Shown here: in pieces, positions 1 to 18,339 of the stretch
How the letters are laid out: each line of letters opens with the position of its first letter
Position numbering within the stretch: the stretch's first letter is position 1
Assembly: GCA_021813125.1 (NCBI GenBank)
Contig: JAKALT010000007.1
Coordinates: forward strand, 1 to 48,064
Length of the DNA stretch: 48,064 bases
Reading direction: 5' to 3'
Source of the DNA: a bacterium
Lineage (GTDB): Bacteria > Patescibacteriota > Microgenomatia > Curtissbacterales > GWA2-41-24
The notes under the pieces: generated by a model
The model's database searches: none
What the model saw: the letters and a program-made list of their open reading frames with translations, nothing else
Told to the model about the DNA's origin: nothing
Position numbers and translations under genes: made by a program

Positions 1-90
1 CACCTCAAAGAATCTGAGTTTCGCTGGAATACAAGAAATGATAATATGTACAGGAAGTTACTTAAAAACTTTAGAGAGAAACCACTCTAA
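1..90 (+). CDS. IS1595-family (IS1016-like) transposase, C-terminal fragment (5' end outside window)
   Basis: Frame 1 reads HLKESEFRWNTRNDNMYRKLLKNFREKPL*, matching the HLKE(C/S)EFR(F/W)N C-terminal motif of IS1595/IS1016 DDE transposases; absent from the ORF track. Confidence 0.8.
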   Translation, partial: HLKESEFRWNTRNDNMYRKLLKNFREKPL

Positions 91-105
91 AGTTGTCTAG
101 ACCCC
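1..105 (+). mobile_element. Right end of an IS1595-family insertion sequence; putative terminal inverted repeat ~91-105
   Basis: Transposase stop is followed directly by AGTTGTCTAGACCCC (reverse complement GGGGTCTAGACAACT), a GGGG-starting end typical of the IS1016 group. The left end is not visible. Confidence 0.65.
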
Positions 106-360
106 TACAAAATATTGTGAAACAAGTCGCTAATGATTAAACGTCGACTTAATTATTATTTATTATAATTTCAAAAAATGATAATACTTGGCAAAAAACC
201 ATTAAGTTTTTTGAAATTGTGTTACTTTAAAGCTAATCTCTCCCGTTAGGGGAATTTGTGGGAATAATCATTTTTCTATAAGTTAAGAAAAACACACCTC
301 TAATCCATATACCAAGCTTTAAAAATAATAGTTGAAAAAGTCAGTGAAAATTTGAAAAAA

Positions 361-1368
361 CTAGGTAAAATGAAGACTGCTGTCCGCCTGAACTGTCAAA
401 GGGTCGTCAGGTTTGCCAACAAAATATGCTGCTGATGCAATCATCGCGCCATTGTCTACGCTAAACTCAATCTTTGGAAAATGCACTCTAACTTGCAAGT
501 CTACGCAAAGCTCACCCAACTTATTGCGCAGTTTCAAATTAGCCGCGACACCACCGCCTATAGCCAGAGATCGCGGTTTGTATATGCCTAAAGCCCTTTT
601 GACTCTTGCTGCTATCGATTCGACGACAGCTTCTTCAAAATAAAAAGCTACTTTTGCAATATCTTTATCCGAAAGTCGAAGCTTATTAACTTCCACGTAT
701 CTGACAACTGCTGTTTTTATGCCTGAAAACGAAAATTCTAAGTTTTCCTTTCCGGACATAGTTATTGGGAAAGGATTTTGCTCGCGATTATTCTTATAGT
801 TTCTTGCCGCTTTTTCTATATGTGGGCCCCCAGGGTAGGGAAGTCCTAAAAATCTTGCCACCTTATCAAAAGCTTCGCCGACTGCATCATCTAATGTAGA
901 GCCGATTAGTTTAAAGTCCCCATGCTTTTGCATATAAACTAGGTCAGTATGCCCCCCCGAAACAACAAGTCCCACAAGAGGGAATTCCGGCGCATTTTTC
1001 GTTTCAAGCCAGTTTGCATAGATATGAGCAGTTAAGTGGTTAACGGGAATCAAAGGTTTCTGCCACGCTAAAGATAAAGTTTTTGCGGTTTCTACTCCAA
1101 CTAGAAGCGAACCGATAAGCCCTGGTCCGTAAGAAACAGCAATAGCGTCAATTTTATCTTCAGGTACTTTCCTTGATACAGAATCAAGGGTAGGGATAAT
1201 AACTTTTAGTTGTTCGCGGGCAGCAATTTCCGGAACAATACCGCCGTATTTGACAAACTTCGAGATAGATGTCGCCAACTCGTTTGCAAGAACCTTTGTG
1301 CCATTTTTGACAACTGCTATCCCAGTCTCATCACAAGTGGATTCGATACCTAATATATTAATATTCAT
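361..1368 (-). CDS. tsaD: tRNA N6-adenosine threonylcarbamoyltransferase TsaD
   Basis: ILGIESTCDET, GGIVPE, GPGL, HxxAH (NHLTAH), VSGGHT, DDAVGEAFDK, SFSGIKT, DNGAMIA motifs. Confidence 0.97.
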   Translation of the reverse strand: MNINILGIESTCDETGIAVVKNGTKVLANELATSISKFVKYGGIVPEIAAREQLKVIIPTLDSVSRKVPEDKIDAIAVSYGPGLIGSLLVGVETAKTLSLAWQKPLIPVNHLTAHIYANWLETKNAPEFPLVGLVVSGGHTDLVYMQKHGDFKLIGSTLDDAVGEAFDKVARFLGLPYPGGPHIEKAARNYKNNREQNPFPITMSGKENLEFSFSGIKTAVVRYVEVNKLRLSDKDIAKVAFYFEEAVVESIAARVKRALGIYKPRSLAIGGGVAANLKLRNKLGELCVDLQVRVHFPKIEFSVDNGAMIASAAYFVGKPDDPLTVQADSSLHFT

Positions 1369-1429
1369 TTAAATTCACTCATAGCATGTCGAACGGTGTA
1401 TTCAAATCCAAAAATAATCATGTAGAAAT

Positions 1430-1966
1430 TTAAAGTTCAAAACTGGCAATATCGCCCGTGGCAACATTATTTAAGTCTGAGAGTCCTGCATTTACTTCTA
1501 GTACATATTTGGCAGGGGAGGCAGGTTTATATTGCTTTAGCTGCAGGTCATTCTTACCGGGTTCTGCAGGCACATTTTTGGCAATTTCCACCACTTTTTT
1601 GTTTTCGTCAATCCAAATAATATCTATTGCAAACTTCATGTCTTTCATCCAAAAAATATAGCTGTCACTTTTATCGAAAACGAAAAGCATACCTTGGTCA
1701 AGGGGGAGGGAGTCATATATTGAAAGGCCTTTTTGCCTATCTTTCGTATTCGCAGCAATTTTGGCGTTAACGTTTAGTTTTCCGATAGTAACTGTCGTTG
1801 AATCGCGGCTTACAGGTGTTGAAGATGTCGAAGCAGAAGCAGTGCCTTGACCAAATCCCGTACCGCTGCCGCGTAAAAGACCGGCTGTTCCAAAGAAATT
1901 ACCAAAAAGAAGCAAAAATATTATAAGGATAAACAGACCGCCGATTATTGAAAGATCCTTCTTCAT
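1430..1966 (-). CDS. DUF192 family membrane-anchored protein
   Basis: N-terminal TM helix; GL...GMLFVF, FWMKDMKFAIDIIWID, YVLEVNAG motifs. ATG at 1966 preferred to the TTG at 1978. Confidence 0.9.
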   Translation of the reverse strand: MKKDLSIIGGLFILIIFLLLFGNFFGTAGLLRGSGTGFGQGTASASTSSTPVSRDSTTVTIGKLNVNAKIAANTKDRQKGLSIYDSLPLDQGMLFVFDKSDSYIFWMKDMKFAIDIIWIDENKKVVEIAKNVPAEPGKNDLQLKQYKPASPAKYVLEVNAGLSDLNNVATGDIASFEL

Positions 1967-2012
1967 AGTATTAGCCAAATTATATATCAGCCGGAAAGAT
2001 TTAAGAAGAATT

Positions 2013-3887
2013 CTAACTGGTCCCGACTAAAAAAACGGCCTGCCAGGGTTTAAAATTCGAATAAAATGCTTTATCTATCACAATCTGGCCGCCTTTATAA
2101 ACTTTTTGGGTAAAAACGCTTTTGGCCCCCCAGGCTGCAAAATCAACTTGTTTTACTGTTCCTTTTGGCAAAGTAGGGTCGTCCTGATATAGAGGCGGCG
2201 GTGGAGCTGTTTGGCTGGTGACAACAGGGTCACTTACCTCAACCCGCCTTCCGTCGGAAGTACCGTAAATATCAACTTCAAGTTTGGTATTGGCAGGGTC
2301 CATAACAGCCTGAACTAATATATGGTGGTCTGTATCATTTTTAAACTTCAAATCCACGGAAGGAGACCATATTGTGGCATCAAGCCCGGCACCAAATCCG
2401 TGTTGTTCGTAATATCCTACTCTGTAAGCGTGGGCTGTCCGCTCTAATATTGGGAAGCCTGCATTTAAAGCCGCCCTAAAAACTGTAGTCGAGACTTGGC
2501 AAATACCTCCACCGTCGTCCAGAACTGTCCTGCCGGAAGAGATAACATACGCCTGTTTAAATCCTTGCGCTGCAGAAACGGGTCCAACGAGCTTATCAAA
2601 AGAAAATACTTCTCCCGGTGGTACTAAAGTGCCGCTTACAAGGCTTGCCCCGAGACCAATATTAAATATTCTGTTGGGTATCGATCCGGCATAATAGGAA
2701 ACACCCCGGCCAATAAGCTCTTTTATTCCCAAAGTATTTACCTCGGGGTTGGCAATTTCCGCCTTAGTAACCCTTACCGGCAAGTCGATTTTAATATTTT
2801 TAACATCTTCCACGTTGTCAATAGAAACCTTAGAAAGCATTAACTGCTTTGTTTTTGCAACATCAAGCACCTGGCCATCTTGGGCGGGTTGGAATTGGCT
2901 TATTTTTCCATTTTCAAACTTAAGTGTTGCATTAACTGTTGGTTTGTTTACTGCCAAAGCAATGTCGCCAACAAATTCGTCTACTTTTTTCTGATTTAAA
3001 GACAAGTCAAGCTCGGGGGGAATAACTGACTTTGATCTAAACGTGCGGATATTTACAGGGTCACCCAAATTTATAGAAACAAAATTTTCGCCCTCATACC
3101 CAACAGGTTGAAATTGCAATATCGAAAGCAAATTATTTCCGGTTAAAGTCCATTTGTCGTAGCCAAAAACCAAACTGATGTTTCGGTCGTTTAAGTCCTT
3201 AACTTTTTCCAGCGCTTTTTTTGCCTGTTCTCTGGTTACAAGCGGCTGGATATCTATAACTTCAGTATCAATCGGAAAATATGAAAGGTTGGCAATATCT
3301 GCTTTTAAATTTCTAACGACCAAGGATTCGTCAACAGCTTTTCCTGGAGTTTCATTAACTATAATAGGCGTAGATCCGGAAACATCAATTGTTGCATCCA
3401 CAGCAGGCTTTTGAATAGCTGAAAGTTTCAAATCTAAAGTTTTAGAAAATAAATAATAGTCAACGGAATATGCAGGCGCGACATTGGCAGATTTAAAAGG
3501 TAAAATTACCCTTTGAGTGAACATCTCAAATGGCTTGCCATGTCTGCCATAAGCCATAAGTTCGGCAACTGTCTTTTCCTTATCAAAAGATATTCCTAAA
3601 TCGGAAGTAGTCATACTTAAGCTTTTCTCTCCGACATTAATAACCAAAGGTGTATTTTCAAAATTGTCTATGCTATTGCCAACAAAAATCTGCGTCTGCT
3701 GCTGATCCATTCCCATCATGCTTTTACCTGCGAAATAAACTCCTGGAACAATTTTATTTGCGTAATATTGGTTATAAATTACAAAAAAGGTAAAAATAAC
3801 AAAAATGGCAGTTAACAAGCTGAACTTGTATTTCCTAAGAAAGCGGAATCTTAAAGCGCTTACTACCTCTTGTTTTGGTTTGGGCAT
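2013..3887 (-). CDS. VanW family protein with N-terminal TM anchor and putative peptidoglycan-binding (YoaR-like) repeats
   Basis: GGGICQVSTTVFRAAL, ERTAH, GLDATI, DLKFKN VanW motifs; NKIVPGVY and P-x-(D/N)A-T repeats. Confidence 0.9.
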   Translation of the reverse strand: MPKPKQEVVSALRFRFLRKYKFSLLTAIFVIFTFFVIYNQYYANKIVPGVYFAGKSMMGMDQQQTQIFVGNSIDNFENTPLVINVGEKSLSMTTSDLGISFDKEKTVAELMAYGRHGKPFEMFTQRVILPFKSANVAPAYSVDYYLFSKTLDLKLSAIQKPAVDATIDVSGSTPIIVNETPGKAVDESLVVRNLKADIANLSYFPIDTEVIDIQPLVTREQAKKALEKVKDLNDRNISLVFGYDKWTLTGNNLLSILQFQPVGYEGENFVSINLGDPVNIRTFRSKSVIPPELDLSLNQKKVDEFVGDIALAVNKPTVNATLKFENGKISQFQPAQDGQVLDVAKTKQLMLSKVSIDNVEDVKNIKIDLPVRVTKAEIANPEVNTLGIKELIGRGVSYYAGSIPNRIFNIGLGASLVSGTLVPPGEVFSFDKLVGPVSAAQGFKQAYVISSGRTVLDDGGGICQVSTTVFRAALNAGFPILERTAHAYRVGYYEQHGFGAGLDATIWSPSVDLKFKNDTDHHILVQAVMDPANTKLEVDIYGTSDGRRVEVSDPVVTSQTAPPPPLYQDDPTLPKGTVKQVDFAAWGAKSVFTQKVYKGGQIVIDKAFYSNFKPWQAVFLVGTS

Positions 3888-3991
3888 AAATTGAAGAAAG
3901 TTAAAATATTGTGAGCCTTATACCTCTGAGCTTATGATATCATAGAAATAGGCTAATCCAAATTCAAAATATTTTTTAAAGTACAGAAAAA

Positions 3992-5275
3992 ATGGTTAGA
4001 TTTTTTTCTAAAATTGCAGCAGTATTCATTTTAAGTTTAGCTCTCTCCGCTTGCTCGGTTTTACCTTTAAAAAAAGGTAGCAGCCCCGTAACCTTAAAGC
4101 TTTGGGGTTTGTGGGAATCTGCAACAACTATGAACCAAGTTATAAACGATTACAAAAAGCTTCATCCGAATGTCAATATTGTTTATGAGAAAAAAAGCGT
4201 TCAACAATACCGTGAGTCTCTTCAAGCTCAAATCCAGTCCGCAAAAGGGCCCGATATATTTATGTTCCACAACACTTGGACACCGATGCTCAAAAATGAA
4301 CTTACTGCCGTTCCCTCAAACGTAGTTTCTTCTTCGGATTTTAAATCAAATTATTTCCCGACTGTTGCCTCAGACCTTCGCAATTCCAGCGGCAGTTACG
4401 TGGGAGTGCCTGCCGGTATCGATGGCTTAGGTTTATACTGGAATCAGGATATTTTTAACGCCGCAGGCATCGTGGCTCCACCCACAACCTGGCAGGAACT
4501 GGCCCAAGTTGCTGCAAAACTTACAGTTAGGGATACATCCGGCAACATCAGGACTGCCGGTGCTGCAATAGGAACCGCGTCCAATGTTGATCAATTTTCC
4601 GATATTTTAGGCATGATGATTATGCAAAACGGGGGAGACCTTAAAAAACCAACTAGCCAGCTGACTGCAGACGCCTTGGATTATTACACCCATTTTGCCA
4701 AAGGGCAAAACCGCGTTTGGGACGAAACTCTTCCGTCCTCAACAATTGCTTTTGCAGGCGGCAATTTGGCAATGTACTTAGGTCCAAGTTGGCGGGCTGC
4801 CGAAATAAAGCAGGCAAATCCGCTTCTGAATTTCAAAGTCGCACCGGTTCCGCAGCTTGAAGGCGGCAAACTGGCTTGGGCCAGTTATTGGGCGTATGGG
4901 GTTTCCGCTAAAAGCCCAAGCCAACAATCAGCCTGGGATTTCGTTAAATACCTTCAAGACGACCAAACGCTTATAAAAATATACAGCGAAGACGCTAAAA
5001 CTCCGGGCATGCTCTTTGGACCACCATACCCTAAAATTGCTCTCGCTCAAAAGCTGAGCCAGGATCCAATTGTCGGAGCATTTGTCACCGATGCCCCCTA
5101 TATGCGCTCTTTTCCGATGGCGGCAAGAACTTATGATAATGGCTTAAATGATCAGATAATTAAGGCTTATGAAGATGCAGTTAATAAAGTCCTGGCCGGG
5201 TCATCCCCATCCTCAGCCCTCGCAACAGCAGCAACAAATGTTCAAAATGTCTTGAACCGCTTCGGAGCCCAATAA
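3992..5275 (+). CDS. Extracellular solute-binding lipoprotein, family 1 (carbohydrate ABC-type)
   Basis: Lipobox LSAC; KGPDIF, GLYWNQDIF, PPTTWQEL, F.GG.LAMY, AWDFVKYL motifs. Confidence 0.9.
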   Translation: MVRFFSKIAAVFILSLALSACSVLPLKKGSSPVTLKLWGLWESATTMNQVINDYKKLHPNVNIVYEKKSVQQYRESLQAQIQSAKGPDIFMFHNTWTPMLKNELTAVPSNVVSSSDFKSNYFPTVASDLRNSSGSYVGVPAGIDGLGLYWNQDIFNAAGIVAPPTTWQELAQVAAKLTVRDTSGNIRTAGAAIGTASNVDQFSDILGMMIMQNGGDLKKPTSQLTADALDYYTHFAKGQNRVWDETLPSSTIAFAGGNLAMYLGPSWRAAEIKQANPLLNFKVAPVPQLEGGKLAWASYWAYGVSAKSPSQQSAWDFVKYLQDDQTLIKIYSEDAKTPGMLFGPPYPKIALAQKLSQDPIVGAFVTDAPYMRSFPMAARTYDNGLNDQIIKAYEDAVNKVLAGSSPSSALATAATNVQNVLNRFGAQ

Positions 5276-5321
5276 ATTTTAAAGCTTGCCATAAATTGCT
5301 AGTCACTGTTATATTTGCCGC

Positions 5322-6203
5322 GTGAATATTTCTGATTCTATAATTGCCGTACTTGCTTACCACGGGATCTTCAGTTACCCATTGAAAGCAGATGAAATCC
5401 ATAAGTATCAAACAAAAAAAGCAACCTTTCTCCAAACAGAAAAAACGATTAAAAATCTTCTTGAAAAAAAAACAATATCAAAAAAAGACGAATTTTATTT
5501 TCTGGGTAAAAATCAAAAACTAGTCACTTTACGCAAAAGTCGCCAGAGGATTTCGGAAAAAAAGTTTAAACGTGCAAATTTTTATGCGAATATCCTCAGA
5601 TCAATCCCGACAATCAAACTTGTAGCAATCTCCGGAGCTTTGGCAATGCAAAACAGTTCAGCCTCAGATGATATAGATTTTTTCATAATTTGCCAAAAAA
5701 ACTGTCTTTGGACAACAAGATTCATGGCCAATTTAGCCCTCCTCCCCTTTAAACGGGAACCTAAGAGTCGAACGCAAAAAGATAAAGCTTGCTTAAATCT
5801 TTTTTTGGACGAGCAGGCCCTTACTGTAAAAGAGCAAAATCTTTACACAGCGCATGAAATTTGTCAGCTGAATGTACTATGGGATAGAAACAACACTTAT
5901 CAGAAGTTTTTAAAGGCAAATTCATGGACTAAAAAGTACTTACCAAATTGGGTATCAAAAATAAAAACGAAGAGATCAAAAAGTAGGGGATCGACCAGCG
6001 GGTATCTACTACCCGGACTCTGGCCGCTAGTCGAAAGTTTTCTTAAATTCATTCAACTGAACTATATGAAATCAAAAATTACTTCCGAAAAAATAGGTGA
6101 TCACCAACTTTTTTTCCATCCTGAGGACACCCAAAAACAAATTTTAAAAAAATATAGCAGTTTTACTAGAAATCTTGACAAAAATCGTCTATTTTTGAGA
6201 TAA
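5322..6203 (+). CDS. Conserved hypothetical protein with Pol-beta-like nucleotidyltransferase motif
   Basis: hhhSGALAMQN...DDIDFFII resembles the G(S/A)-x(7-12)-DxD NTase signature; the N-terminus may be a winged helix. GTG start lies 6 nt after an extended -10. Confidence 0.65.
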   Translation: MNISDSIIAVLAYHGIFSYPLKADEIHKYQTKKATFLQTEKTIKNLLEKKTISKKDEFYFLGKNQKLVTLRKSRQRISEKKFKRANFYANILRSIPTIKLVAISGALAMQNSSASDDIDFFIICQKNCLWTTRFMANLALLPFKREPKSRTQKDKACLNLFLDEQALTVKEQNLYTAHEICQLNVLWDRNNTYQKFLKANSWTKKYLPNWVSKIKTKRSKSRGSTSGYLLPGLWPLVESFLKFIQLNYMKSKITSEKIGDHQLFFHPEDTQKQILKKYSSFTRNLDKNRLFLR

Positions 6204-6204
6204 T
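6175..6204 (+). promoter_or_regulatory. Sigma70-type promoter of pyrG
   Basis: TTGACA 6175-6180, 18-nt spacer, extended -10 TG-a-GATAAT 6196-6204; predicted +1 at G6211. Confidence 0.7.
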
Positions 6205-6212
6205 TCTAGCGG

Positions 6213-6235
6213 GCACCCCAAGTGGGTGCATTTTT
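6213..6235 (+). terminator. Intrinsic terminator/attenuator hairpin in pyrG leader
   Basis: GCACCC-CAAGT-GGGTGC stem-loop followed by ATTTTT. Confidence 0.6.
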
Positions 6236-6239
6236 AGTT

Positions 6240-7862
6240 TTGAACACAAAATTCATCTTCGTTTCAGGCGGCGTCATTTCCGGAATCGGAAAAGGGATAG
6301 CCACCTCTTCAATTGCCCTAATTCTAAAATCCCGCGGTTTTTCAGTAACTGCCATGAAGGCTGACCCCTACTTAAACATCGACGCTGGCACCTTAAATCC
6401 AATAGAACATGGCGAGGTCTTTGTTTTAGATGACGGCATGGAATGTGACCAGGATCTTGGTAATTACGAACGTTTCCTAGAGCAAAACCTTAACTCTACC
6501 AATTACATGACCACAGGCCAGGTTTTCAAATCCATTATAGATAGGGAAAGGTCACTTGGTTACGAAGGCAAAACGGTCGAATTTTTTCAAGATCCGCCAA
6601 GAGAAATAATAAGCCGCATTGTAAAATGCGCCAAAACCAATAAGGCCGAAATTGTCGTTTTTGAAGTTGGCGGCACAGTAGGGGAATACCAGAATTTGCT
6701 GTTTTTGGAAGCAAACCGTCTTTTAAAGCTGGAACACCCTCGCGATGTTTTGCATGTCCATGTAACTTATCTTCCCGTTCCGTCATCGGTAGGAGAAATG
6801 AAATCTAAGCCCGCGCAAATGTCCATCCAACAGCTTGCTTCATCCGGAATCGTTGCAGATTTTGTGCTTGCCCGGTCTCAATTCGCCGTCGACGAAAAAA
6901 GGCGCGAAAAAATTGCCATCGCCTGTGGTCTGCAAAAAGAGGATATTCTTTCCGCCCCGGATGTTGAAAACATCTATCAGGTGCCTCTAAACTTCGAAAA
7001 TCAGGGCCTTTCCGAAAAAATCCTCAAAAAATTAAACACAAAGCCCAGAAAATCCAACCTCGCGGAATGGAAAGTAATGGTCAATTCGGCCCTAACAGCC
7101 AAAAAACATGCCAAAATCGCCATGGTCGGCAAATATTTTTCAACCGGCGACTACACACTCTCCGACGCCTACCTTTCGGTCATCGAATCAATAAAGCATG
7201 CTGCGGCATGTTTTGACATCAAACCTAAAATGACTTGGATAGATTCCGCTCAAGTAGAAAAGGAAGGAATAGATATGTTAAAAGGCTTCGATGCCATTAT
7301 AGTTCCCGGGGGTTACGGTACCAGGGCGGTTGAAGGTATTGTCCAATCAATAAAATATGCCCGCGAAAATAAAGTGCCGTATTTTGGCCTCTGCTACGGT
7401 ATGCAGCAGGCAGCTGTTGAATTTGCCAGAAACGTATTAGGCTACAAGGATGCCAATACAACCGAAATCGATCCCAAAACCAAACATCCGATAATCCACG
7501 TTATGGCTTCACAAAAAGATCTAGTCAAATACCATAAACTTGGCGGTACTCAAAGACTTGGATCTTGGGAATGGAAAGCCAAAAAAGGCACAATTTTTGA
7601 AAAAGCCTACAAATCTACAACCGGCTCCGACCGGCATCGTCACCGCTACGAATTCAATAATACTTATAAGGAAGAGTTCGAAAAGCACGGTATGGTAATT
7701 TCTGCAACCACCAAAGACGGCTATTTAGTCGAGGCGCTTGAGCTCAAAGATCACCCCTTTTTCATTGGAACCCAGTTTCACCCGGAGTTAAAATCCCGCC
7801 CACTTCATCCTCATCCTTTATATATGGCTTTCATGGAAGCCATTGCCAAGACAAAAAACTAA
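6240..7862 (+). CDS. pyrG: CTP synthase
   Basis: KFIFVSGGVISGIGKG, DPYLNIDAGT, EVGGTVG, GLCYGMQ, RHRHRYEFN, QFHPE. TTG at 6240 fits the usual N-terminus better than GTG at 6222. Confidence 0.97.
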   Translation: MNTKFIFVSGGVISGIGKGIATSSIALILKSRGFSVTAMKADPYLNIDAGTLNPIEHGEVFVLDDGMECDQDLGNYERFLEQNLNSTNYMTTGQVFKSIIDRERSLGYEGKTVEFFQDPPREIISRIVKCAKTNKAEIVVFEVGGTVGEYQNLLFLEANRLLKLEHPRDVLHVHVTYLPVPSSVGEMKSKPAQMSIQQLASSGIVADFVLARSQFAVDEKRREKIAIACGLQKEDILSAPDVENIYQVPLNFENQGLSEKILKKLNTKPRKSNLAEWKVMVNSALTAKKHAKIAMVGKYFSTGDYTLSDAYLSVIESIKHAAACFDIKPKMTWIDSAQVEKEGIDMLKGFDAIIVPGGYGTRAVEGIVQSIKYARENKVPYFGLCYGMQQAAVEFARNVLGYKDANTTEIDPKTKHPIIHVMASQKDLVKYHKLGGTQRLGSWEWKAKKGTIFEKAYKSTTGSDRHRHRYEFNNTYKEEFEKHGMVISATTKDGYLVEALELKDHPFFIGTQFHPELKSRPLHPHPLYMAFMEAIAKTKN

Positions 7863-7892
7863 ATTTCTGCTATCATTTGCGCGTTTGTAGGT

Positions 7893-9113
7893 ATGACTCA
7901 CGAAATTGCATCACATGCGCCCACACCAGATAGGCTGTTTGACCTGGAAGAGGCTTTAAAAAAGACCGAAATCACCCATTTTGGCCCGGCAACTTTGGCA
8001 AGCGTCGCCTGCGGCACAAGAGTTACAAACGACGATTTGCTTTATGAATTCAAAGTATGCACCAATGCCAGCCCTGAAGAAGCCGAAGCCGCCGATGAAC
8101 TACTCAAAGCAACCGGCATAACCGTCAGGTATGCCTCTTGGGAAATCACCCTTACTCACGATGAAATCCTCCAAAGGACGACCAAAATCGGAGCCCATCT
8201 AATAAAGTCTCTCATGAAAGAAAAAGGTTGGGAGTCGGTAGATGCGGTTCTCGACACCTCTGCTTCACTACCCGAAAACATAGGTAAAAAGGTAATTGAA
8301 GAGGCAGGTCTTAATACTGAAACTACTGCTTCAAAACCGTATCGGGTAGCATGCGCGGGCGCAATTGCGGCAATAGTCGATACTCTGGCTGATCCCGAAA
8401 TGAAAGACAAGCGGGTAATTGTATTGGCTCTTGAGCCTTTGAGCCAGCATGTAAAACCATCTCAATGCGGTTCGAAAGACACGATACCCCTGCCTGCGAT
8501 TTTTGGAGACGACTTTGCCACTATTGGCTTCAACACAGACGATTTTGAAGTTGTTGGACCCAGGACACATATAATCGATGACGGTGCACATATTCGTTTT
8601 GACGCCGATTATTCGCTTCTACCAACAGACGAGACATCAATTCCGAAGCACTACACCTTCGGGGAAAGGGGAAGGGAAATTAGTTCAATCACCCCAAACA
8701 GAGTTCTCCTTGCTATCCAAAAACCGGAAAACGGAATGCCTTCGTCTATGTACGGCAGGGGAGTCTACAATTTTTTTGTGCCTGAGACAATAAGAGTCCT
8801 GGAAGATGTTGTTGAAAGGGCAAAGCGGCAGGGAATCAATGTTAGGCAAGCTGTCATGCACCAGCCTAGTTTGAAAGTAAACCAAGGCCTAAAGAGGCGC
8901 GCAACTGAAAAACACCCAAACCTCGCAGGTCTCGACATACCCGATTTTCTCCTTGGTCAAATTAAAAGATCTAACAGCAGCTCCGCAACATCGCTTGTAG
9001 TTTGGCAGCATTTGGCAAAAGAAGGAAAACTTGACCCAAACCAACCTCTTTTAGTTTGCGCCCCAGGCATTGGCTCCGCAATCTCGGCAGGCGTTATCGT
9101 CCCCGCTAAATAA
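7893..9113 (+). CDS. Divergent beta-ketoacyl synthase III (FabH)/thiolase-fold condensing enzyme
   Basis: VACAGA (Cys), ALEPLS, IFGDD, MYGRGVYNF, HQPS (His), SNSSSA (Asn), APGIG: FabH-like Cys-His-Asn triad in the correct order. Confidence 0.8.
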   Translation: MTHEIASHAPTPDRLFDLEEALKKTEITHFGPATLASVACGTRVTNDDLLYEFKVCTNASPEEAEAADELLKATGITVRYASWEITLTHDEILQRTTKIGAHLIKSLMKEKGWESVDAVLDTSASLPENIGKKVIEEAGLNTETTASKPYRVACAGAIAAIVDTLADPEMKDKRVIVLALEPLSQHVKPSQCGSKDTIPLPAIFGDDFATIGFNTDDFEVVGPRTHIIDDGAHIRFDADYSLLPTDETSIPKHYTFGERGREISSITPNRVLLAIQKPENGMPSSMYGRGVYNFFVPETIRVLEDVVERAKRQGINVRQAVMHQPSLKVNQGLKRRATEKHPNLAGLDIPDFLLGQIKRSNSSSATSLVVWQHLAKEGKLDPNQPLLVCAPGIGSAISAGVIVPAK

Positions 9114-9125
9114 TCGACAAACCCC

Positions 9126-9153
9126 TTGACAAACAAAAAAACCTTGCTAAAAT
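9126..9153 (+). promoter_or_regulatory. Sigma70-type promoter of groES-groEL
   Basis: TTGACA 9126-9131, 16-nt spacer, TGcTAAAAT 9145-9153. Confidence 0.75.
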
Positions 9154-9154
9154 A

Positions 9155-9181
9155 TTAGCAGTCACGGACACTAAGTGCTCG
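9155..9181. promoter_or_regulatory. CIRCE-like HrcA operator (degenerate)
   Basis: TTAGCAGTC-N9-AAGTGCTCG versus consensus TTAGCACTC-N9-GAGTGCTAA, immediately downstream of the groES -10. Confidence 0.65.
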
Positions 9182-9199
9182 TGATTTTTGCCCAAAAAG

Positions 9200-9253
9200 G
9201 ATTGAGGATTGAGAACTGAGTAGTTAACTCAGAACTAACAACTCAGAACTAAC
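9200..9253. repeat. Heptamer tandem/inverted repeat cluster in groES leader
   Basis: GATTGAG GATTGAG AACTGAG tagtt AACTCAG AACTAAC AACTCAG AACTAAC; exact 14-mer duplicate at 9226-9239/9240-9253. Confidence 0.8.
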
Positions 9254-9255
9254 CA

Positions 9256-9540
9256 ATGATAAAACCATTAGCCGGATACGTCTTAATAGAACCTGCCCCA
9301 AAAGAAACTAAAACAGCCAGTGGAATTGTCCTTCCGGAATCAGCCGAAGAAAAACCGCAGGAAGGAAAAGTTATCGCTTGCGGTGATGATTTAGTCGAAG
9401 AAGGAAAAACCGTCAAATGTCCTGTAAAAGTAGGGGAAAAGGTCATTTACAAAAAATGGGGCGGAAACGAACTTAAAGTCGAAGGAAAGGAGCTTTTGCT
9501 CATCAAATTTGAGGATTTGATGGCAATAGTAGGGAAATAA
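9256..9540 (+). CDS. groES: Co-chaperonin GroES
   Basis: IKPL, KTASGIVLP, EKPQEG, VKVGEKV motifs; 94 aa. Confidence 0.97.
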   Translation: MIKPLAGYVLIEPAPKETKTASGIVLPESAEEKPQEGKVIACGDDLVEEGKTVKCPVKVGEKVIYKKWGGNELKVEGKELLLIKFEDLMAIVGK

Positions 9541-9541
9541 A

Positions 9542-9727
9542 ATGAGCCTAAAGGACCGAGAATCGTCAGACAAAAATTCAATTCAGATGATACAAAAGCT
9601 TGATTCATCTGTTGTAGTCAGATTCTATGAAGGAGAACCCCCCATTCTTATAGAAGAAAGTCAATCACAAGCCGTCCAAACGCCAAAAAGTCCATTTGAG
9701 GAAAAACACCAGAAAATCCATTTTTGA
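9542..9727 (+). CDS. Hypothetical 61-aa protein between groES and groEL
   Basis: ATG starts 1 nt after the groES stop and the ORF fills the gap almost exactly; no recognisable motif. Confidence 0.5.
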   Translation: MSLKDRESSDKNSIQMIQKLDSSVVVRFYEGEPPILIEESQSQAVQTPKSPFEEKHQKIHF

Positions 9728-9748
9728 GAAAAACCAAGGACTAAACAA

Positions 9749-11374
9749 ATGGCTAAACAACTTTTATACGCAGAAGAAGCAAGAACAAAACTAAAGGCAG
9801 GTGTCGACAAGCTCGCAGCAGCCGTTGCAACTACTCTAGGCCCAAAAGGCAGGAATGTAGCCTTAGACAAGAAGTGGGGGGCCCCAAACGTTATCCACGA
9901 CGGTGTTACCGTCGCCAAAGAAATTGAACTCGAAGACCCGTTTGAAAACATGGGCGCATCACTTGTTAAAGAAGCAGCCAGCAAAACCAACGATTCTGCA
10001 GGAGACGGAACCACAACCGCAACAGTATTAGCACAAGCCATAGTAGAAGAAGGCCTCAAAAATGTAACTGCCGGCGCCAATCCAATGATCCTAAAACATG
10101 GTGTAGAGAAGGCAACCGAGGCAGTAGTAGCGGAACTTAAGAAAATGGCTAAAAAAGTTGCCGACCGTGGTGAAATTGAAAAAATCGCCACAATTTCCGC
10201 AGCCGATGCCACAATCGGCAAAATGATAGCCGACGCCCTGGAAAAAGTCGGCGCCGATGGTGTAGTCACGGTTGAAGAATCAAAAGGCTTGGATACCTAC
10301 GTTGACACCAAAGAAGGCATGGAGTTTGACCGCGGTTTCGTATCCCCTTATTTTGTTACCGACACGGACAAAATGAAGGCAATAGTAGACGACGCTCACA
10401 TTTTAATTACCGACCAAAAAATCGCATCTTTAAACGACCTTTTGCAATTCTTGGAAAATTTCGTCAAAGTGAGCAAAAACTTAGTCATTATAGCCGACGA
10501 AGTTGAAGGTGAAGCCCTGGCAACCTTGGTCATAAACAGAATCAAAAGCACATTCAACGTTCTGGCTGTCAAAGCCCCCGGTTTTGGTGACCGCCGAAAA
10601 GAAATGCTCGAAGACATCGCAATTCTTACAGGTGGAACTGTTATCTCTGAAGACATGGGCAGGAAACTTGAATCAGTAACCATTGATGATCTAGGAAAAG
10701 CGGATCAGGTAATTTCCGACAAAGAAAATACAATTATAGTTGGCGGAAAAGGTACAAAAAACGCAATTGACGCCCGAATAAAACAAATCAGAAACGAAAT
10801 CGAAACAACCGACAGCGATTTTGACCGCGAAAAGCTTCAGGAGCGTTTGGCCAAGCTTTCCGGCGGCGTTGCCGTCATAAATGTCGGTGCGGCTACCGAA
10901 ATCGAGCTCAAAGAGAAAAAAGAAAGGGTAGACGATGCTGTTCATGCTACAAAAGCCGCTGTTGAAGAAGGTTATGTTGTAGGTGGAGGGGTTGCTCTGG
11001 TGCGCGTCAGCAAATCACTCGACAAACTTATATCCTCAACCGCCGAAAATGACGAAAGAATCGGTGTTGAAATTGTCAAAGCAGCACTCAATAAACCGCT
11101 TGCAATGCTTGCCAAAAATGCAGGGATAGACAGCGGCTGGGCGGTCAAAGAAGTTGAAAAAGCTGCCGGCAATGTCGGTTTGAATGCCCTAAACGGTAAA
11201 TTCGAAGATTTGGTTGCAGCAGGCGTTATCGACCCTGTCAAAGTTACCCGGTCTGCACTCCAAAACGCAGCCTCCGTTGCCATGATGATTTTAACTACAG
11301 AAGCTTTGGTTACAGACCTTCCGGAAAAAGAAAAAGCCCCTATGATGCCTCCGGGCGGCATGGGCGACTATTAA
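9749..11374 (+). CDS. groEL: Chaperonin GroEL
   Basis: [39 protein letters not shown] tail. Confidence 0.99.
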
Positions 11375-11438
11375 AACCTAAATCCCACTTCAGTATCTTG
11401 ACTGCTCCAAATATTGGAGTTAACTTTGAATTGTACTA

Positions 11439-11466
11439 GCTTTTGTGCAAAGAAAAGCCTTTTTTT
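11439..11466 (+). terminator. Probable intrinsic terminator after groEL
   Basis: GCTTTT-gtgcaaag-AAAAGC followed by C and a T run. Confidence 0.5.
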
Positions 11467-11471
11467 GAATT

Positions 11472-11687
11472 ATGTCAGCAAGAGAAAGAGGAATGTATGG
11501 TGAAGTCATTCATCCAAGGGCGGCCTTGAAAGGTCACGACGGAGGAAGAGGGCCGACACCAAACCAGCGAGATCATCTTAACACTATCCACTGGAGAAGA
11601 ATATTAGATGGGTTGCCTAAACCTCGTACACAAACAAGCCCAAGGGAATCAGTATTATCTCCTGAATCAGCCCTAAACCTTTCTTGA
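11472..11687 (+). CDS. Hypothetical 71-aa protein
   Basis: ATG ORF filling the gap between groEL and the convergent gene; no motif. Confidence 0.4.
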   Translation: MSARERGMYGEVIHPRAALKGHDGGRGPTPNQRDHLNTIHWRRILDGLPKPRTQTSPRESVLSPESALNLS

Positions 11688-11696
11688 GGGGCTGAA

Positions 11697-12389
11697 CTAC
11701 TTCAGCACGATCTTAATCATCGCATTTCCTACATTTGCCGCAAAATCACTCATATCGGTTTTTGCCTGAATCCTATATGTTTTTGGGCCGTACTGGAAGG
11801 GTATCTTGGCAGAAGTTCTAAATTCACCCGTTGACGAGGATGAAGAAATCTCACTTTCATAATAAGGGTTGTTGTCATTGACATTAATTATTCTTGCCCA
11901 AGCTTTCCCGTTACCGTTTGTTACCCAGATTGAAGCCTGAAACACCATGTAGTCAATTGGCGGATATTTATTTGTGTCGATTGAAACTTCCGCACCGCTT
12001 ATATCAGAATAAGTGCTGCTCTTTGAAGATCCGGACCCGATGGGAATAAATATTTCCTTTTGCGCTGTTTGGATTATCGTTTGTGTTTCTTTTTGAATAA
12101 CAGTTTGTACGGGTTGAGATTGACTTTGGCTCCGAGGCTGAGTTGTCTGAGGTTGAACCGTAGGGCTTTCATGAGCAGAGGCTAAAGGTGCGGGAGATGG
12201 TGTTGCAAAAATCACACCTGGCGGAGGGCTTACAGCTACATTACCTTCAGAATTAGCTTTAGAAGAAGAAAGTTCGGCCGGCGTCTTTTTAAAGATCCAC
12301 CAGTTTAAAATTGCCAAATCTAAAAGTGCCACCACCAAAATAGCTAAACCGAATTTGGAAAGGATTTTAGAAGCCAAAGATTGTTCCAT
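11697..12389 (-). CDS. Membrane-anchored hypothetical protein with Pro/Ser/Gln linker and beta-rich C-terminal domain
   Basis: N-terminal TM, low-complexity linker (SPPP, TPSPAP, QPQ), EIFIPIGSG-type C-terminal domain. Confidence 0.75.
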   Translation of the reverse strand: MEQSLASKILSKFGLAILVVALLDLAILNWWIFKKTPAELSSSKANSEGNVAVSPPPGVIFATPSPAPLASAHESPTVQPQTTQPRSQSQSQPVQTVIQKETQTIIQTAQKEIFIPIGSGSSKSSTYSDISGAEVSIDTNKYPPIDYMVFQASIWVTNGNGKAWARIINVNDNNPYYESEISSSSSTGEFRTSAKIPFQYGPKTYRIQAKTDMSDFAANVGNAMIKIVLK

Positions 12390-12477
12390 AGGCAGTATTA
12401 ACCTTATTTTAGTCGTTGAAACGGTTATTGTCTAAGAAGCAATTTTAAAAAGTCATTATGATAAACTTAAAGTTGAA

Positions 12478-12984
12478 GTGGAACACAAAAAACCCCCTAA
12501 AGGCAAAAAGAAACAGCTCCAAAAACTTTTAGGAAGTGGGGAAGAGGTTGTTTATGTTACATCTATAGGAAGCCGCTATTTTTGGATAAACTTTATCACC
12601 ATGCTGCCTTTGGCATTTCTATTAATCGGGATGCCAAAACTTTCCCAGTTGGTCAGACAGCGCCAGTCATTCACGTATGCTCTCACAAATCGCCGTTTTA
12701 TGATAATTCGCGGTATTTTCTCAAGAAAAATTGTGACGGCACCCTTAACTGCAATTACCCACGTGACAATTGAACAGTCATTCGTCCAAAGGTTTGTCTA
12801 TAACACCGGCCATCTTGTCATCATTACAGCCGGATTCGACCAAAGGGAAATCGTTATCGAAAATATCGGCAATCCGGTCGAATTCAAAATTATGATAGAG
12901 GAACTAACCAGAAAGATCGAAGATTCTTGGGAAGGTGAAGACGACAAAAAAGAAACGTTTAAGCTGCGTTCTCTCTCAGGTTAA
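12478..12984 (+). CDS. Bacterial PH-domain (bPH_2) membrane-flanked protein
   Basis: GEEVVY, Y.LTNRR...RGIFSR, I..V.IEQS..QR...TGHL.I.TAG pattern. Confidence 0.8.
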   Translation: MEHKKPPKGKKKQLQKLLGSGEEVVYVTSIGSRYFWINFITMLPLAFLLIGMPKLSQLVRQRQSFTYALTNRRFMIIRGIFSRKIVTAPLTAITHVTIEQSFVQRFVYNTGHLVIITAGFDQREIVIENIGNPVEFKIMIEELTRKIEDSWEGEDDKKETFKLRSLSG

Positions 12985-13742
12985 TTGTCCGGCAAAACAC
13001 TTGAAGGATTAATCATAACCCCATTATCAAAAACCTCAATATGAACGTGCGGCCCGGTTGTATGTCCGGTTAAACCGACGTTTCCAATTTTTGTCGTTTC
13101 GGAAATCACATCACCTCTACCAACATCCATTCTGCTCATATGGGCGTAAAGCGACTGTAACCCGTCGCCGTGGTCGATAATAACCGTATTTCCATGGCCG
13201 TCAGGCATAAAACCAACATATATTACTTTTCCGCCCCCCAAAGGATAAATTGGAGACCCGTATGCTGCCGCAATGTCGTCGGCTCTATGATAACCACTAA
13301 ACCCTTGCGAAATCACACCCCCGACAACCGGCATTCTAAAATTGAATGGAGACCTTTTTGCAGCTATACTGGCCTGAAGCAGTATTTCGTCAGGATTTTT
13401 CGCTTCATTATTTTTTGCAACCAATATTGCTTCTCCATTGACTTTAATATCTGCCTCTTTAGCCTTAAGATAACCGGCACCGATATTTGTCAAAAACAGC
13501 AAAATAATAAGGATTAAGGTTAGTTTTGAAAACAGCCTTATTCTTGGCCTTATAGCAATTTGATTTTGAACGCCCTTGAACCCGTGCTTTATAGCTTTGT
13601 TAGCCTCCATTTTGGCGTATTTGCGAATAAGTCGGCTGTATTTGTTTTTGAAAACGACGAACCTAAAAGAGCGTTTTGCAGCTCTTTTTGCGATTACAAC
13701 TTGTCTTTTTACAGACTTTCTAAGTTGTTTGTTTAGTTTCAT
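12981..13742 (-). CDS. M23 family metallopeptidase (membrane-anchored)
   Basis: HRADD (HxxxD), GNTVIIDHGDG, SLYAHM, GLTGHTTGPHVH (HxH). Confidence 0.93.
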   Translation of the reverse strand: MKLNKQLRKSVKRQVVIAKRAAKRSFRFVVFKNKYSRLIRKYAKMEANKAIKHGFKGVQNQIAIRPRIRLFSKLTLILIILLFLTNIGAGYLKAKEADIKVNGEAILVAKNNEAKNPDEILLQASIAAKRSPFNFRMPVVGGVISQGFSGYHRADDIAAAYGSPIYPLGGGKVIYVGFMPDGHGNTVIIDHGDGLQSLYAHMSRMDVGRGDVISETTKIGNVGLTGHTTGPHVHIEVFDNGVMINPSSVLPDN

Positions 13743-13850
13743 TTATTTTTAAACTCCTCAAGCTTTAAAAAGCCCACAAAAACCCCTTTCAGAAAAAAGC
13801 AGGGGATTAATATGGGTATTCAGCCCATAGTGAGGAATTTACAAAGCAAA

Positions 13851-13879
13851 AGTATAGCATAAATAGAAGCCAAAGTCAA
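13851..13879 (-). promoter_or_regulatory. Sigma70-type promoter for M23 peptidase gene
   Basis: Minus strand TTGACT (13879-13874), 17-nt spacer, TGcTATACT (13859-13851); gives a ~100-nt leader. Confidence 0.75.
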
Positions 13880-13971
13880 ATCACAAACAAATACTAATAA
13901 AACCTATAGTTATAAAAGGGAATGCATTAAAATCTTGCTTATTTCTAATCTAAAGTGTTAATTTAAATCCA

Positions 13972-14799
13972 ATGCCTAAAGAGGGAATTCGCGCGAAAAA
14001 ATGCAAAAAAAATAAAATTACCGGCCTTGTTTTAATTTATTTTTTAGCCGCTTTTTTACTATCCGGTTGCAGCCTCACGGCTTTTAACAAGCCTGCCGCC
14101 CTTCAAGTGACATCTGTGCCTGGATCATCGGTATTTATGGACGGTAAGCTGTTAGGGAAAACGCCTTATTACTCGGATCAGGTTACATCGGGTGATCACA
14201 CTATCAAACTTTCAGCTTCCCAGTCTAGCTACACTACCCAAATCGCATTAAGGTCAGGAACTTTAACTGTTATAAACCGCGAGCTTGCGGACAATTTTTC
14301 CGCTCAATCTGGCGAAAATCTTTGGCTGGAACCAGGTTTATCGGGAACACTTTTAATTTCTCGCCCACAAGATACGGAAATTACAATTGACGGCAAATTT
14401 TACGGCACCGCGCCGAAACTTATTAAAAATCTCGATGATGGAGACCACCAGGTACAACTCACAAAAGCAGGTTACATAAACCGTCAATTCGCCATTAAAA
14501 CTTCTTCAAAATACAGGTTAACTGCTGATGTGACCCTGGCATCAGAAATAGGAAGGGGCCAGGTTCAGATGGCGGAACCAAGCCCCCAGGTTCAAGTCCA
14601 AAAAGTCGAGATCTTAAAAACCCCTCAGGGATTTTTAAGGGTCAGAAAAGATGCATCTTTAACCAGCGATGAAATTGGCCGCGTTTCCACTGGCGACCAG
14701 TTGGAAGTTATTCAAAAAACCGACGATTGGGTAAAAGTTCTCTTCGAGGGCAAACAAGGTTGGATCTCAAAAACTTACACTAAAGACCTTTCTCAATAA
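13972..14799 (+). CDS. Lipoprotein with two PEGA domains and C-terminal SH3-like domain
   Basis: Lipobox LSGC; LQVTSVPGSSVFMDGKLLGKTP and SRPQDTEITIDG PEGA repeats; LRVRK...GWIS SH3 motif. Confidence 0.88.
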   Translation: MPKEGIRAKKCKKNKITGLVLIYFLAAFLLSGCSLTAFNKPAALQVTSVPGSSVFMDGKLLGKTPYYSDQVTSGDHTIKLSASQSSYTTQIALRSGTLTVINRELADNFSAQSGENLWLEPGLSGTLLISRPQDTEITIDGKFYGTAPKLIKNLDDGDHQVQLTKAGYINRQFAIKTSSKYRLTADVTLASEIGRGQVQMAEPSPQVQVQKVEILKTPQGFLRVRKDASLTSDEIGRVSTGDQLEVIQKTDDWVKVLFEGKQGWISKTYTKDLSQ

Positions 14800-14861
14800 C
14801 TACTCTAAATATCTATTGGGCTAATCTTGATTCTTGGTACCCGATACTTGATACTTAACTT

Positions 14862-15401
14862 ATGGTCGCCAAAAGTCTCACAAAACTCATAGATGAGGCA
14901 ATTTTCCCCGCCCTTACACTTGTTGTTGCCAAAATGTTAGGCCTTCTTTTGAGCGCATTTTTTCTAAATCTTCCTTTTGAAATTAAAGCTAAAGCAATTT
15001 TTGGCATTTTGCCCGCAATTAATTTTTTAAACGTTTCAAATTATATTACTGCAGAAAATTATTCAAACCTTGCAATGTTTTTGGCGGCTGCTATAGGTGC
15101 CACCTTTGTTTTAATAAGAGCTTATTTTTTCCACGAAAGCCATGTTCACCCCAATCTTCAAGCTAAACTTGCGGCCCTGAATTTGGAAAACATCATTGCC
15201 CCAAGTTACCACCTTTACCATCAGGCTTTAATTTGGTTGATTTTTGTCTGGATGACCGTCGGATTTCTGGTCGTATCCACATTTCTTAAAATTACATATC
15301 CCGCGATTTCGGTAGTGGCCTTTATTCTGGCTGCTAATCTTTCGTGGATTTTTGCAATAGACGTTGAAAAAGAAATAGAAATCACAAAAACTTATCAATG
15401 A
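14862..15401 (+). CDS. Hypothetical integral membrane protein
   Basis: About 4 hydrophobic segments; overlaps the next gene via ATGA-type coupling. Confidence 0.75.
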   Translation: MVAKSLTKLIDEAIFPALTLVVAKMLGLLLSAFFLNLPFEIKAKAIFGILPAINFLNVSNYITAENYSNLAMFLAAAIGATFVLIRAYFFHESHVHPNLQAKLAALNLENIIAPSYHLYHQALIWLIFVWMTVGFLVVSTFLKITYPAISVVAFILAANLSWIFAIDVEKEIEITKTYQ

Positions 15402-15838
15402 AGCTAAACCTGCAAATCGCAATTGCAAATTTTCTAGCCACCTTTTTACTTGTGGCACTTATCGTAAGTCCGATTTATTTTGCCAAAAATTTTTCCCAGG
15501 TTGCCGGAGTCAAAACCGAGTCAAGATATTTGCTAATTTCCCAAACCGATAAATTTCCCAATATGACATTTACCCAAAGTGGCCAAACGTATCAACTATC
15601 ATTTACTAAGCAAAGCCAAAATCAGGCATTTTTAAGCGTTTTTATAGTCAATAACCCTACTCAAAGTCCTCAAAAATACACCCTCAAAACACCTTCAGCC
15701 CAAACAGCAATTTTTTTTGGTGATGATGTTAACAACTTGCAAAGTTCCGTGGTCGTCCCGGCACAGTCATCTGTACCAATCAGTATTTTTGCCAAAACAG
15801 ATTCTTTGGCTGATCTGATCTCTTTCACCATAAACTAG
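15398..15838 (+). CDS. Hypothetical membrane-anchored protein
   Basis: N-terminal TM followed by the QVAGV motif common in CPR secreted proteins; beta-rich domain. Confidence 0.7.
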   Translation: MKLNLQIAIANFLATFLLVALIVSPIYFAKNFSQVAGVKTESRYLLISQTDKFPNMTFTQSGQTYQLSFTKQSQNQAFLSVFIVNNPTQSPQKYTLKTPSAQTAIFFGDDVNNLQSSVVVPAQSSVPISIFAKTDSLADLISFTIN

Positions 15839-15846
15839 CTTAAAAA

Positions 15847-18334: not shown

Positions 18335-18339
18335 AAAGT

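Follow-up and report, generated by a model that had tools for sequence, protein, structure and literature searches.

The pyrG leader and its promoter

We examined the region upstream of pyrG, the gene for CTP synthase, in a Microgenomates bacterium of the Curtissbacterales (lineage GWA2-41-24; genome of 1.04 Mb on 31 contigs, 94% complete, 41.9% G+C; assembly GCA_021813125.1). The window referred to throughout is the whole stretch of 48,064 nucleotides that was analysed, that is, positions 1 to 48,064 of the forward strand of contig JAKALT010000007.1. At this locus a promoter, a GGGC sequence at the predicted transcription start, a hairpin and a U run precede pyrG in close succession (Table 1). 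On the evidence set out below, we judge the chances to be somewhat better than even that this leader is a CTP-sensitive attenuator of the Bacillus subtilis type, operating by reiterative transcription, in a single-hairpin form that would also terminate the gene upstream. A sequence-only reading of the window had laid out this anatomy, and every position that it gave was verified, as was the RNA from G6211, which reads GGGCACCCCAAGUGGGUGCAUUUUU as had been written. Its description of a CCCC tract in the 5′ arm of the hairpin needs a qualification: three of these Cs are part of the stem, and the fourth is the first base of the loop.

Because relatives align with PyrG only from TTG 6240 (MNTKFIFVSGG), the leader comprises 29 nt from the predicted start G6211 to this codon; the GTG at 6222, which lies inside the hairpin and was given as the start of pyrG by a mechanical list of open reading frames (ORFs), was rejected for the same reason. 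At −1 the non-template strand has C and the template strand thus a purine. The TAA stop codon (6201-6203) of the upstream ORF falls inside the −10 box of pyrG, which is itself part of a conserved TTTGAGAnAAT box. The stem of the hairpin, which we refer to as P1, has six base pairs, five of them G-C, and is followed by A6230, five Ts (6231-6235) and AGTT, which directly adjoins the TTG.

Table 1. Coordinates of the pyrG leader and the genes on either side of it
Feature	Position	Strand	Remarks
Upstream ORF	5322..6203	+	293 aa; no Pfam family
−35 box TTGACA	6175..6180	+	Present in all 29 Curtissbacteria- and Woykebacteria-like promoters; invariant in seven single-hairpin leaders
Extended −10 box TGaGATAAT	6196..6204	+	18-nt spacer; TG 6196-6197, GATAAT 6199-6204
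TCTAGC	6205..6210	+	Six bases between −10 box and GGGC; −1 is C
GGGC	6211..6214	+	Predicted initially transcribed sequence; start predicted on one of G6211-G6213
Hairpin P1, GCACCC/CAAGU/GGGUGC	6213..6229	+	Predicted terminator stem-loop here; −10.8 kcal/mol; arms GCACCC 6213-6218 and GGGTGC 6224-6229, loop CAAGT 6219-6223
CCCC tract	6216..6219	+	Proposed target of non-templated 5′ Gs; pairs with poly-G in the folding model
AUUUUUAGUU	6230..6239	+	U run of the predicted terminator, reaching the start codon; no Shine-Dalgarno match in the 29-nt window leader
pyrG (CTP synthase)	6240..7862	+	TTG start, 540 aa; Pfam CTP_synth_N 1.2e-96, GATase 9e-35
Downstream ORF	7893..9113		406 aa; no Pfam family

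How far these elements exceed chance was assessed in positions 1-20000 of the window. Among 56 promoter-like sites, the pyrG promoter is one of two that match 11 of 12 positions and carry the TG. The pyrG hairpin tops the list of terminator-like sites, which as a class show no overall enrichment in this interval (17 versus 24.5 ± 5.9 in shuffles), and the folding energy of the hairpin (z = −1.77) was equalled by 8 of 200 shuffles. Taken as a single sequence, the hallmarks of the leader are only suggestive; it is their conservation in relatives, judged from the comparisons described below, that takes the pyrG leader beyond chance. The second 11/12 promoter with TG (9126-9153, TTGACA-16-TAAAAT) is located ~100 nt upstream of a 94-aa ORF (9256-9540) that is GroES-like by eye.

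The start site was calibrated on leaderless genes. Strong promoter-like sites, defined as TTGACN-16..19-[TG]AnAAT, number 76 in the genome, and 19 of them have the start codon of an ORF of at least 80 aa at a gap of 6-8 nt from the −10 box (nine at gap 6, three at gap 7 and seven at gap 8). Because leaderless genes start at this distance, the start of pyrG is predicted on G6211, G6212 or G6213, and the 6-nt offset that the sequence-only reading had borrowed from leaderless promoters is borne out. GGGC is no general promoter feature of this genome: it occurs within 13 nt of the −10 box in four of the 76 strong sites, and at gap 5-6 at pyrG only. Eight sequencing runs were listed for positions 5600-7400 of the window, all of DNA or of a guessed type and none established as RNA; the sole possible RNA run among them contained 0.05 of the words of this interval. 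Of note, leaderless genes seem common in this genome (G000), with examples at C10:24930, C20:13263 and C28:12049.

This calibration also bears on a start-site switch of the pyrC type, in which high CTP would direct initiation to C6210 and low CTP to a downstream G, thereby changing hairpin formation. The pyrimidine before the G run is conserved, as such a switch would have it. However, RNAs starting at C6210, G6211, G6212 or G6213 all retain the six stem pairs, the hairpin beginning at G6213; the stem would be broken only by a start 9 nt or farther past the −10 box, beyond the gap of 6-8 nt at which leaderless genes begin, and no Shine-Dalgarno sequence is masked by the hairpin here. A switch of the pyrC/pyrD type was rejected on this geometry, and we consider it very improbable.

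The promoter-GGGC motif is conserved with pyrG

We compared the upstream regions of 30 PyrG loci of the Curtissbacteria family (78-100% identical), three of which (L022, L027 and L029) include too little upstream DNA and are left out of the family upstream counts, leaving 27. In all 27, TTGACA is followed after a spacer of 17-19 nt by a (T)TTGAGAnAAT box and, 5-6 nt further on, by GGGC. Promoter plus GGGC also precede pyrG in both Woykebacteria-like loci and, among 49 Daviesbacteria-like loci, in 35 (34 if one doubtful case is set aside); the combination is missing from pyrG in all 16 loci that represent other families of the class. Around the motif the sequence is far from fixed. Across the 29 loci made up of the 27 family and two Woykebacteria-like loci, +5 may be any of the four bases (C 12, A 9, G 5, T 3) and the discriminator differs in nearly every locus except at −1, which is always a pyrimidine (C 24, T 5).

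A scan of 32 whole family genomes with the pattern TTGACA-N17-19-RANAWT-N5-6-GGGC gave 33 matches in 30 genomes, and the reversed-pattern control gave none. Twenty-seven of the matches lie directly 5′ of pyrG and four elsewhere; the matches at G026:C6 and G028:C19, which have the same conserved box, probably belong to pyrG genes cut off by contig breaks 70-74 nt upstream. By this measure, pyrG is nearly the only place in whole ~1-Mb family genomes where the promoter-GGGC motif is found, and a strong promoter appears to be placed, and conserved with pyrG, such that GGG and a following C would be transcribed first. The sequence-only reading had proposed comparing Microgenomates pyrG upstream regions for GGGC at +1 and a compensatory hairpin; on the counts above, with flanks that vary and a motif nearly confined to pyrG, the outcome of this comparison is positive.

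Leader hairpins in relatives and the single-hairpin form

In all 29 Curtissbacteria- and Woykebacteria-like leaders, a 5′ hairpin is predicted after GGGC, its outermost pair beginning at +1 to +5 and mostly at +3; these 29 hairpins comprise 28 distinct sequences. In most relatives' leaders this is followed by a second hairpin, a U run and the start codon, and in 29 of 29 leaders a hairpin lies directly before the first U run. In the latter hairpin, C-rich sequences (GUCCCCC, UCCUCC, AGCUCCC) make up the 5′ arm. The 3′ arm resembles GGAGG, is at most 20 nt from the start codon in 18 of 29 leaders and would, because of this position, double as a ribosome-binding site, suggesting that the second hairpin in relatives is both terminator and Shine-Dalgarno mask. 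A 7-bp outer stem was found for 16 of the 29 leaders (the picks for L025 and L078 are doubtful), and in these 16 the stem covaries, with C-G in 9, U-A in 6 and U-G in 1 at pair 5, and C-G in 11, U-A in 4 and U-G in 1 at pair 7. The second hairpin of relatives (e.g. L004, 24-50) also has a recurring 3x3 internal loop beside a short GC helix, in which GUA faces GAA (present in 5 and 9 of the 16, respectively) and which may stabilise the hairpin or bind a protein.

Such an internal loop could point to attenuation by a trans-acting factor or ligand, such as CsrA, a PyrR-like protein or a small riboswitch, with GGGC forming part of the bound or folded element; that a CsrA gene adjoins pyrG in L002 (see below) is in line with this. 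However, a 29-nt leader with a variable hairpin loop is too small for an aptamer, P1 sequences are nearly all different (28 distinct among 29), and Rfam yielded no fitting match, either at gathering score or with E allowed up to 10. Specifically, Rfam gave no match at gathering score in the window or in nine relatives' loci, and the sub-threshold matches in 6100-6400 (CyaR, mir-3167, Fluoride and RT-6), at 12-17 bits versus gathering scores of 34-86 bits, were dismissed as chance. We regard control by a factor or ligand as distinctly improbable.

Compared with L012 and L008, which have the same first hairpin, the window and L002 are without exactly the block of the second hairpin, and the rest is collinear. 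Because the second hairpin is missing, P1 abuts the U run and would become the terminator itself. The window lineage appears to have lost the second hairpin, and a two-hairpin leader seems to have preceded the minimal form. The single-hairpin layout is also found in L002 and L003, which belong to the same genus, and in four of six metagenome sequences retrieved with a pattern that specified the first hairpin only. Among the seven single-hairpin sequences there is no variation in TTGACA, TTTGAGA, AAT, GCGGGCACCCCA, GGGTG and TTTT, whereas every column of the promoter spacer varies, and P1 differs by a C-to-U change that turns its closing pair from G-C to G-U and by two loop substitutions. The Woykebacteria-like L078 has a similar single-hairpin layout, and L017 has a GCACCC/GGGUGC terminator.

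The missing block, together with a TTG start and no Shine-Dalgarno match left, would also suit a decayed remnant, in which the second hairpin, as the real regulated terminator and ribosome-binding-site mask, has been lost and pyrG is constitutive or otherwise controlled. Decay does not account for the fact that seven distinct sequences keep P1 fused to the U run, with GGGC, P1 and TTTT invariant next to a variable spacer, nor for the confinement of changes in P1 to its closing pair and loop, nor for the similar arrangements in L078 and L017. We consider a remnant improbable.

Two further elements were observed in relatives' leaders. The block GGCCCGCAGUCC...GAGGACCGCA is kept just after the leader terminator U run in L003, L025, L027 and L028, and had no Rfam match at gathering score in L003, L025 and L028. 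A hairpin element with tandem G-A mismatches, GUCCUGAG...CGAAGGAC, is inserted in some pyrG leaders in either orientation (in one in L010, L023, L024, L026, L028, L031 and L086, in the opposite one in L084, L087, L111 and L112), which suggests a mobile palindromic repeat; the element had no Rfam match. It is present in 17 copies in 371 kb of relatives' loci, and because there are no copies in this genome it is irrelevant to the window leader.

Folding of leaders with added 5′ Gs

We added 0-12 Gs computationally to the 5′ ends of the leaders and folded the RNAs at equilibrium as well as in a nascent state cut before the 3′ arm, both models being uncalibrated against a known attenuator such as the B. 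subtilis leader. For the window, the equilibrium probability of the terminator stays at 0.99 for 0-2 extra Gs and falls to 0.74 at four and to ~0.5 at 8-10; eight extra As leave it unaffected. If the window RNA is cut at +13, at least three extra Gs give a poly-G:CCCC hairpin of ~−8.5 kcal/mol, while the corresponding structure with no extra G reaches only −2.9 kcal/mol. With regard to the proposal that added Gs fold back onto CACCCC, two to four extra 5′ Gs suffice in the folding models to capture the C-rich terminator arm ahead of synthesis of its partner, but at equilibrium the fold-back lowers the window terminator probability only from 0.99 to ~0.5.

In relatives, eight extra Gs lowered the equilibrium terminator probability by at least 0.3 in 10 of 28. 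In leaders cut before the 3′ arm, none of 29 with no extra G had three or more bases of the terminator 5′ arm paired to the 5′ G block, as opposed to 25 of 29 with four extra Gs and 27 of 29 with eight. In L011, L016 and L019 with eight extra Gs, the G tail and the C tract prolong the first hairpin as one helix. According to the folding model, the first hairpin may always lie between G tail and C tract because both would extend its helix.

Daviesbacteria-like leaders

The Daviesbacteria-like leaders (L031, L082-L130) read TATTAT-attga-GGGCCUCAAAA. A run of 4-6 Cs is present in 31 of 34 such leaders versus 14% of shuffled leaders, and in the short ones it lies 5-10 nt before AUG, at the position of a ribosome-binding site. 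The short leaders contain neither a U run nor a G-rich partner for the C run. Because a 5′ G tail would be the sole obvious partner of this C run, the Daviesbacteria-like leaders may represent a translational version of the same switch. In four Daviesbacteria-like loci (L101, L107, L110 and L126) pyrG itself looks leaderless, with GGATAAT-gctagc-GTG and no GGGC leader.

Neighbouring genes and probable termination of the upstream gene

The upstream ORF is syntenic in most family loci (46-65% identity), and the downstream ORF is found in four distinct further Curtissbacteria loci (41-81% identity). In L002, L012, L016 and L028, several hundred bases separate the homologue of the upstream ORF from pyrG; in L002 this gap is filled by a 93-aa CsrA-family gene (1161-1442; PF02599, 1.8e-15), the stop codon of which overlaps the pyrG −35 box. 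In all four loci, promoter, GGGC and hairpin remain beside pyrG. The sequence-only reading had raised the case that the hairpin acts only as the terminator of the upstream gene. This case is weakened by a leader that stays with pyrG despite intervening DNA; termination of the upstream gene is nevertheless very likely too, and we conclude that the hairpin likely has a double role.

A broader form of this explanation is that the leader is ordinary punctuation without CTP sensing, i.e. that the hairpin terminates the upstream gene and, in the pyrG RNA, serves to stabilise the 5′ end or as a constitutive, leaky brake, with GGG retained for efficient and perhaps GTP-sensitive initiation. The upstream ORF stops 10 nt before the hairpin, the effect of extra Gs at equilibrium is partial, terminator-like sites are not enriched in the window, and the 5′ hairpins in the leaders of all relatives could simply protect the mRNA, all of which agrees with punctuation. 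Punctuation leaves unexplained, however, why C occupies +4 in 27 of 27 family loci while +5 varies, why the combination of promoter and GGGC is nearly unique to pyrG in 30 genomes, why a C-rich arm lies beside the 5′ end in every leader, and why all 29 leaders place a terminator after a near-consensus promoter and ahead of an essential gene; nor does it account for a leader that remains with pyrG where the upstream gene differs. We hold punctuation to be rather unlikely, and a B. subtilis-type attenuator that also terminates the upstream gene remains our preferred reading.

Mechanism of the proposed attenuator

The features of a B. subtilis-type attenuator that could be looked for in sequence all appear to be present: a pyrG 5′ leader, a predicted terminator, a pyrimidine-rich arm able to pair with poly-G and a template purine at −1. 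GGGC stands 6 nt past the −10 box, and with leaderless genes starting at gap 6-8 the pyrG start is predicted there. In our model, RNA polymerase supplied with ample CTP would make 5′-GGGC in the normal way; the hairpin (+3 to +19) would form, the transcript would end in the U run at ~+25 to +28, and pyrG would not be transcribed. When CTP is scarce, the polymerase would stall before C4, slip on the three template Cs and add extra Gs. The extra Gs, already exposed, would pair with C6-C9 as these emerge (~−8.5 kcal/mol), and because C6-C9 would then be occupied by the G tail, G14-G16 of the 3′ arm would come too late to nucleate the terminator and the polymerase would continue into pyrG. Read-through RNA from the upstream gene, which has no 5′ G tail, would always stop at the hairpin, so that the hairpin would both terminate the upstream gene and insulate pyrG. 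The partner of the extra Gs would be a different one in most relatives, namely the C-rich 5′ arm of the second hairpin just 3′ of P1.

In its fullest version, this model describes a complete metabolite-sensing attenuator within the first 25 transcribed bases, in which the polymerase senses CTP at GGGC, non-templated Gs folding back on CCCC are the antiterminator, and one hairpin is at once 5′ cap hairpin, pyrG terminator and upstream terminator. We put this version forward tentatively, as a possibility that we rate at clearly less than even.

Several observations weigh against the proposed attenuator. The hairpin starts 10 nt past the stop codon of the upstream ORF and would terminate that ORF regardless of any role in pyrG. 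Its 5-nt loop gives the fold-back only a short head start over the terminator, the model requires the polymerase to terminate after only ~25-28 nt, and C occupies five of the six positions +4 to +9, such that low CTP itself could hinder promoter escape. In the window the leader ends in a TTG start and has no Shine-Dalgarno match; in relatives, pairing with the GGAGG ribosome-binding site also accounts for the C-rich arm. The Daviesbacteria-like leaders have A at −1 in 34 of 34, giving a template pyrimidine unlike in Bacillus. With regard to folding, no number of extra Gs up to 12 displaces the window terminator as the minimum-energy structure, nor does its probability sink below ~0.4-0.6, while in the other 18 of 28 relatives the terminator probability drops by less than 0.1 or rises in 14 and changes to an intermediate extent in four. 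Because the equilibrium outcome is mixed, the model needs a kinetic argument.

Comparison with known systems

Within the literature searched, no paper on reiterative transcription in Patescibacteria or the candidate phyla radiation was found, and to that extent the earlier statement that such a leader has not been described in these bacteria holds. What the present analysis adds is the single-hairpin variant, the whole-genome control for specificity, the calibration of the start site from leaderless genes and the extension to Woykebacteria- and Daviesbacteria-like loci. If the fullest version of the proposal is correct, the window leader would be the smallest self-contained transcription attenuator known to us, having arisen by hairpin loss from a two-hairpin ancestor, and would set a lower bound on the size at which an attenuator can work. 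Related pyrG leaders with a G run and a C tract, including a terminator-less and possibly translational Daviesbacteria form, would then make up a family spanning the Microgenomates. The leader would also extend to a very distant lineage a mechanism that, as far as we searched, is otherwise found only in Bacillota. Bacteria of the candidate phyla radiation have genomes of ~1 Mb, and their gene regulation is largely unexplored; the leader would exemplify regulation without regulators in bacteria with very small genomes, where RNA polymerase, a GGGC start and one hairpin would suffice to match CTP synthesis to need. The single-hairpin form corresponds to a template of ~70 bp, small enough for direct CTP titration in vitro, and the comparative set of 29 Curtissbacteria- and Woykebacteria-like, seven single-hairpin and 34 Daviesbacteria-like leaders provides natural variants.

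Escherichia coli and Salmonella pyrC and pyrD are controlled by CTP-sensitive start-site switching, in which a hairpin masks the ribosome-binding site and control is translational. The window leader resembles these in that it is very short, that the first transcribed bases would decide the fate of a 5′ hairpin and that the polymerase itself would sense the nucleotide pool; it differs in that every plausible start keeps the hairpin, a U run follows and no Shine-Dalgarno sequence is masked. Lactococcus lactis pyrG has a G-run start and a rho-independent terminator upstream of the gene, in a longer leader and in a member of the Bacillota.

With its predicted G-run start and putative rho-independent terminator upstream of the gene, the window leader resembles that of pyrG in Streptococcus agalactiae, for which a similar start sequence and terminator are reported from differential RNA sequencing (dRNA-seq), together with an enrichment of nucleotide-metabolism genes among those with reiterative initiation (PMC4448216). 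S. agalactiae also belongs to the Bacillota, its leader is longer and its 5′ ends are known from data, whereas those considered here are predicted from DNA.

The closest parallel is B. subtilis pyrG. According to PMC7039003, control there requires no part of the leader other than GGGC and the pyrimidine-rich terminator arm, and low CTP leads to the addition of as many as 10 extra Gs (citing Meng, Turnbough and Switzer 2004); a template purine at −1 is reported as important for reiteration, guiding the slipped RNA (Shin et al.). Measured against this description, the window leader precedes the same gene, has GGGC at its predicted start, has a putative intrinsic terminator between promoter and gene, has a C-rich terminator 5′ arm complementary to poly-G, and has a template purine at −1; B. 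subtilis needs no protein regulator, and the same is proposed here. Unlike B. subtilis, the host belongs to the Patescibacteria (Microgenomates) and not to the Bacillota; no sequence similarity was detected, and the window leader has no Rfam match. Also unlike B. subtilis, the terminator begins at +3; 25 nt accommodate sensor, target tract and terminator, and the CCCC on which added Gs would fold back lies next to them. The relatives differ from B. subtilis in yet another way: their 5′ hairpin would bring the G tail beside the C tract, and their terminator would mask the ribosome-binding site.

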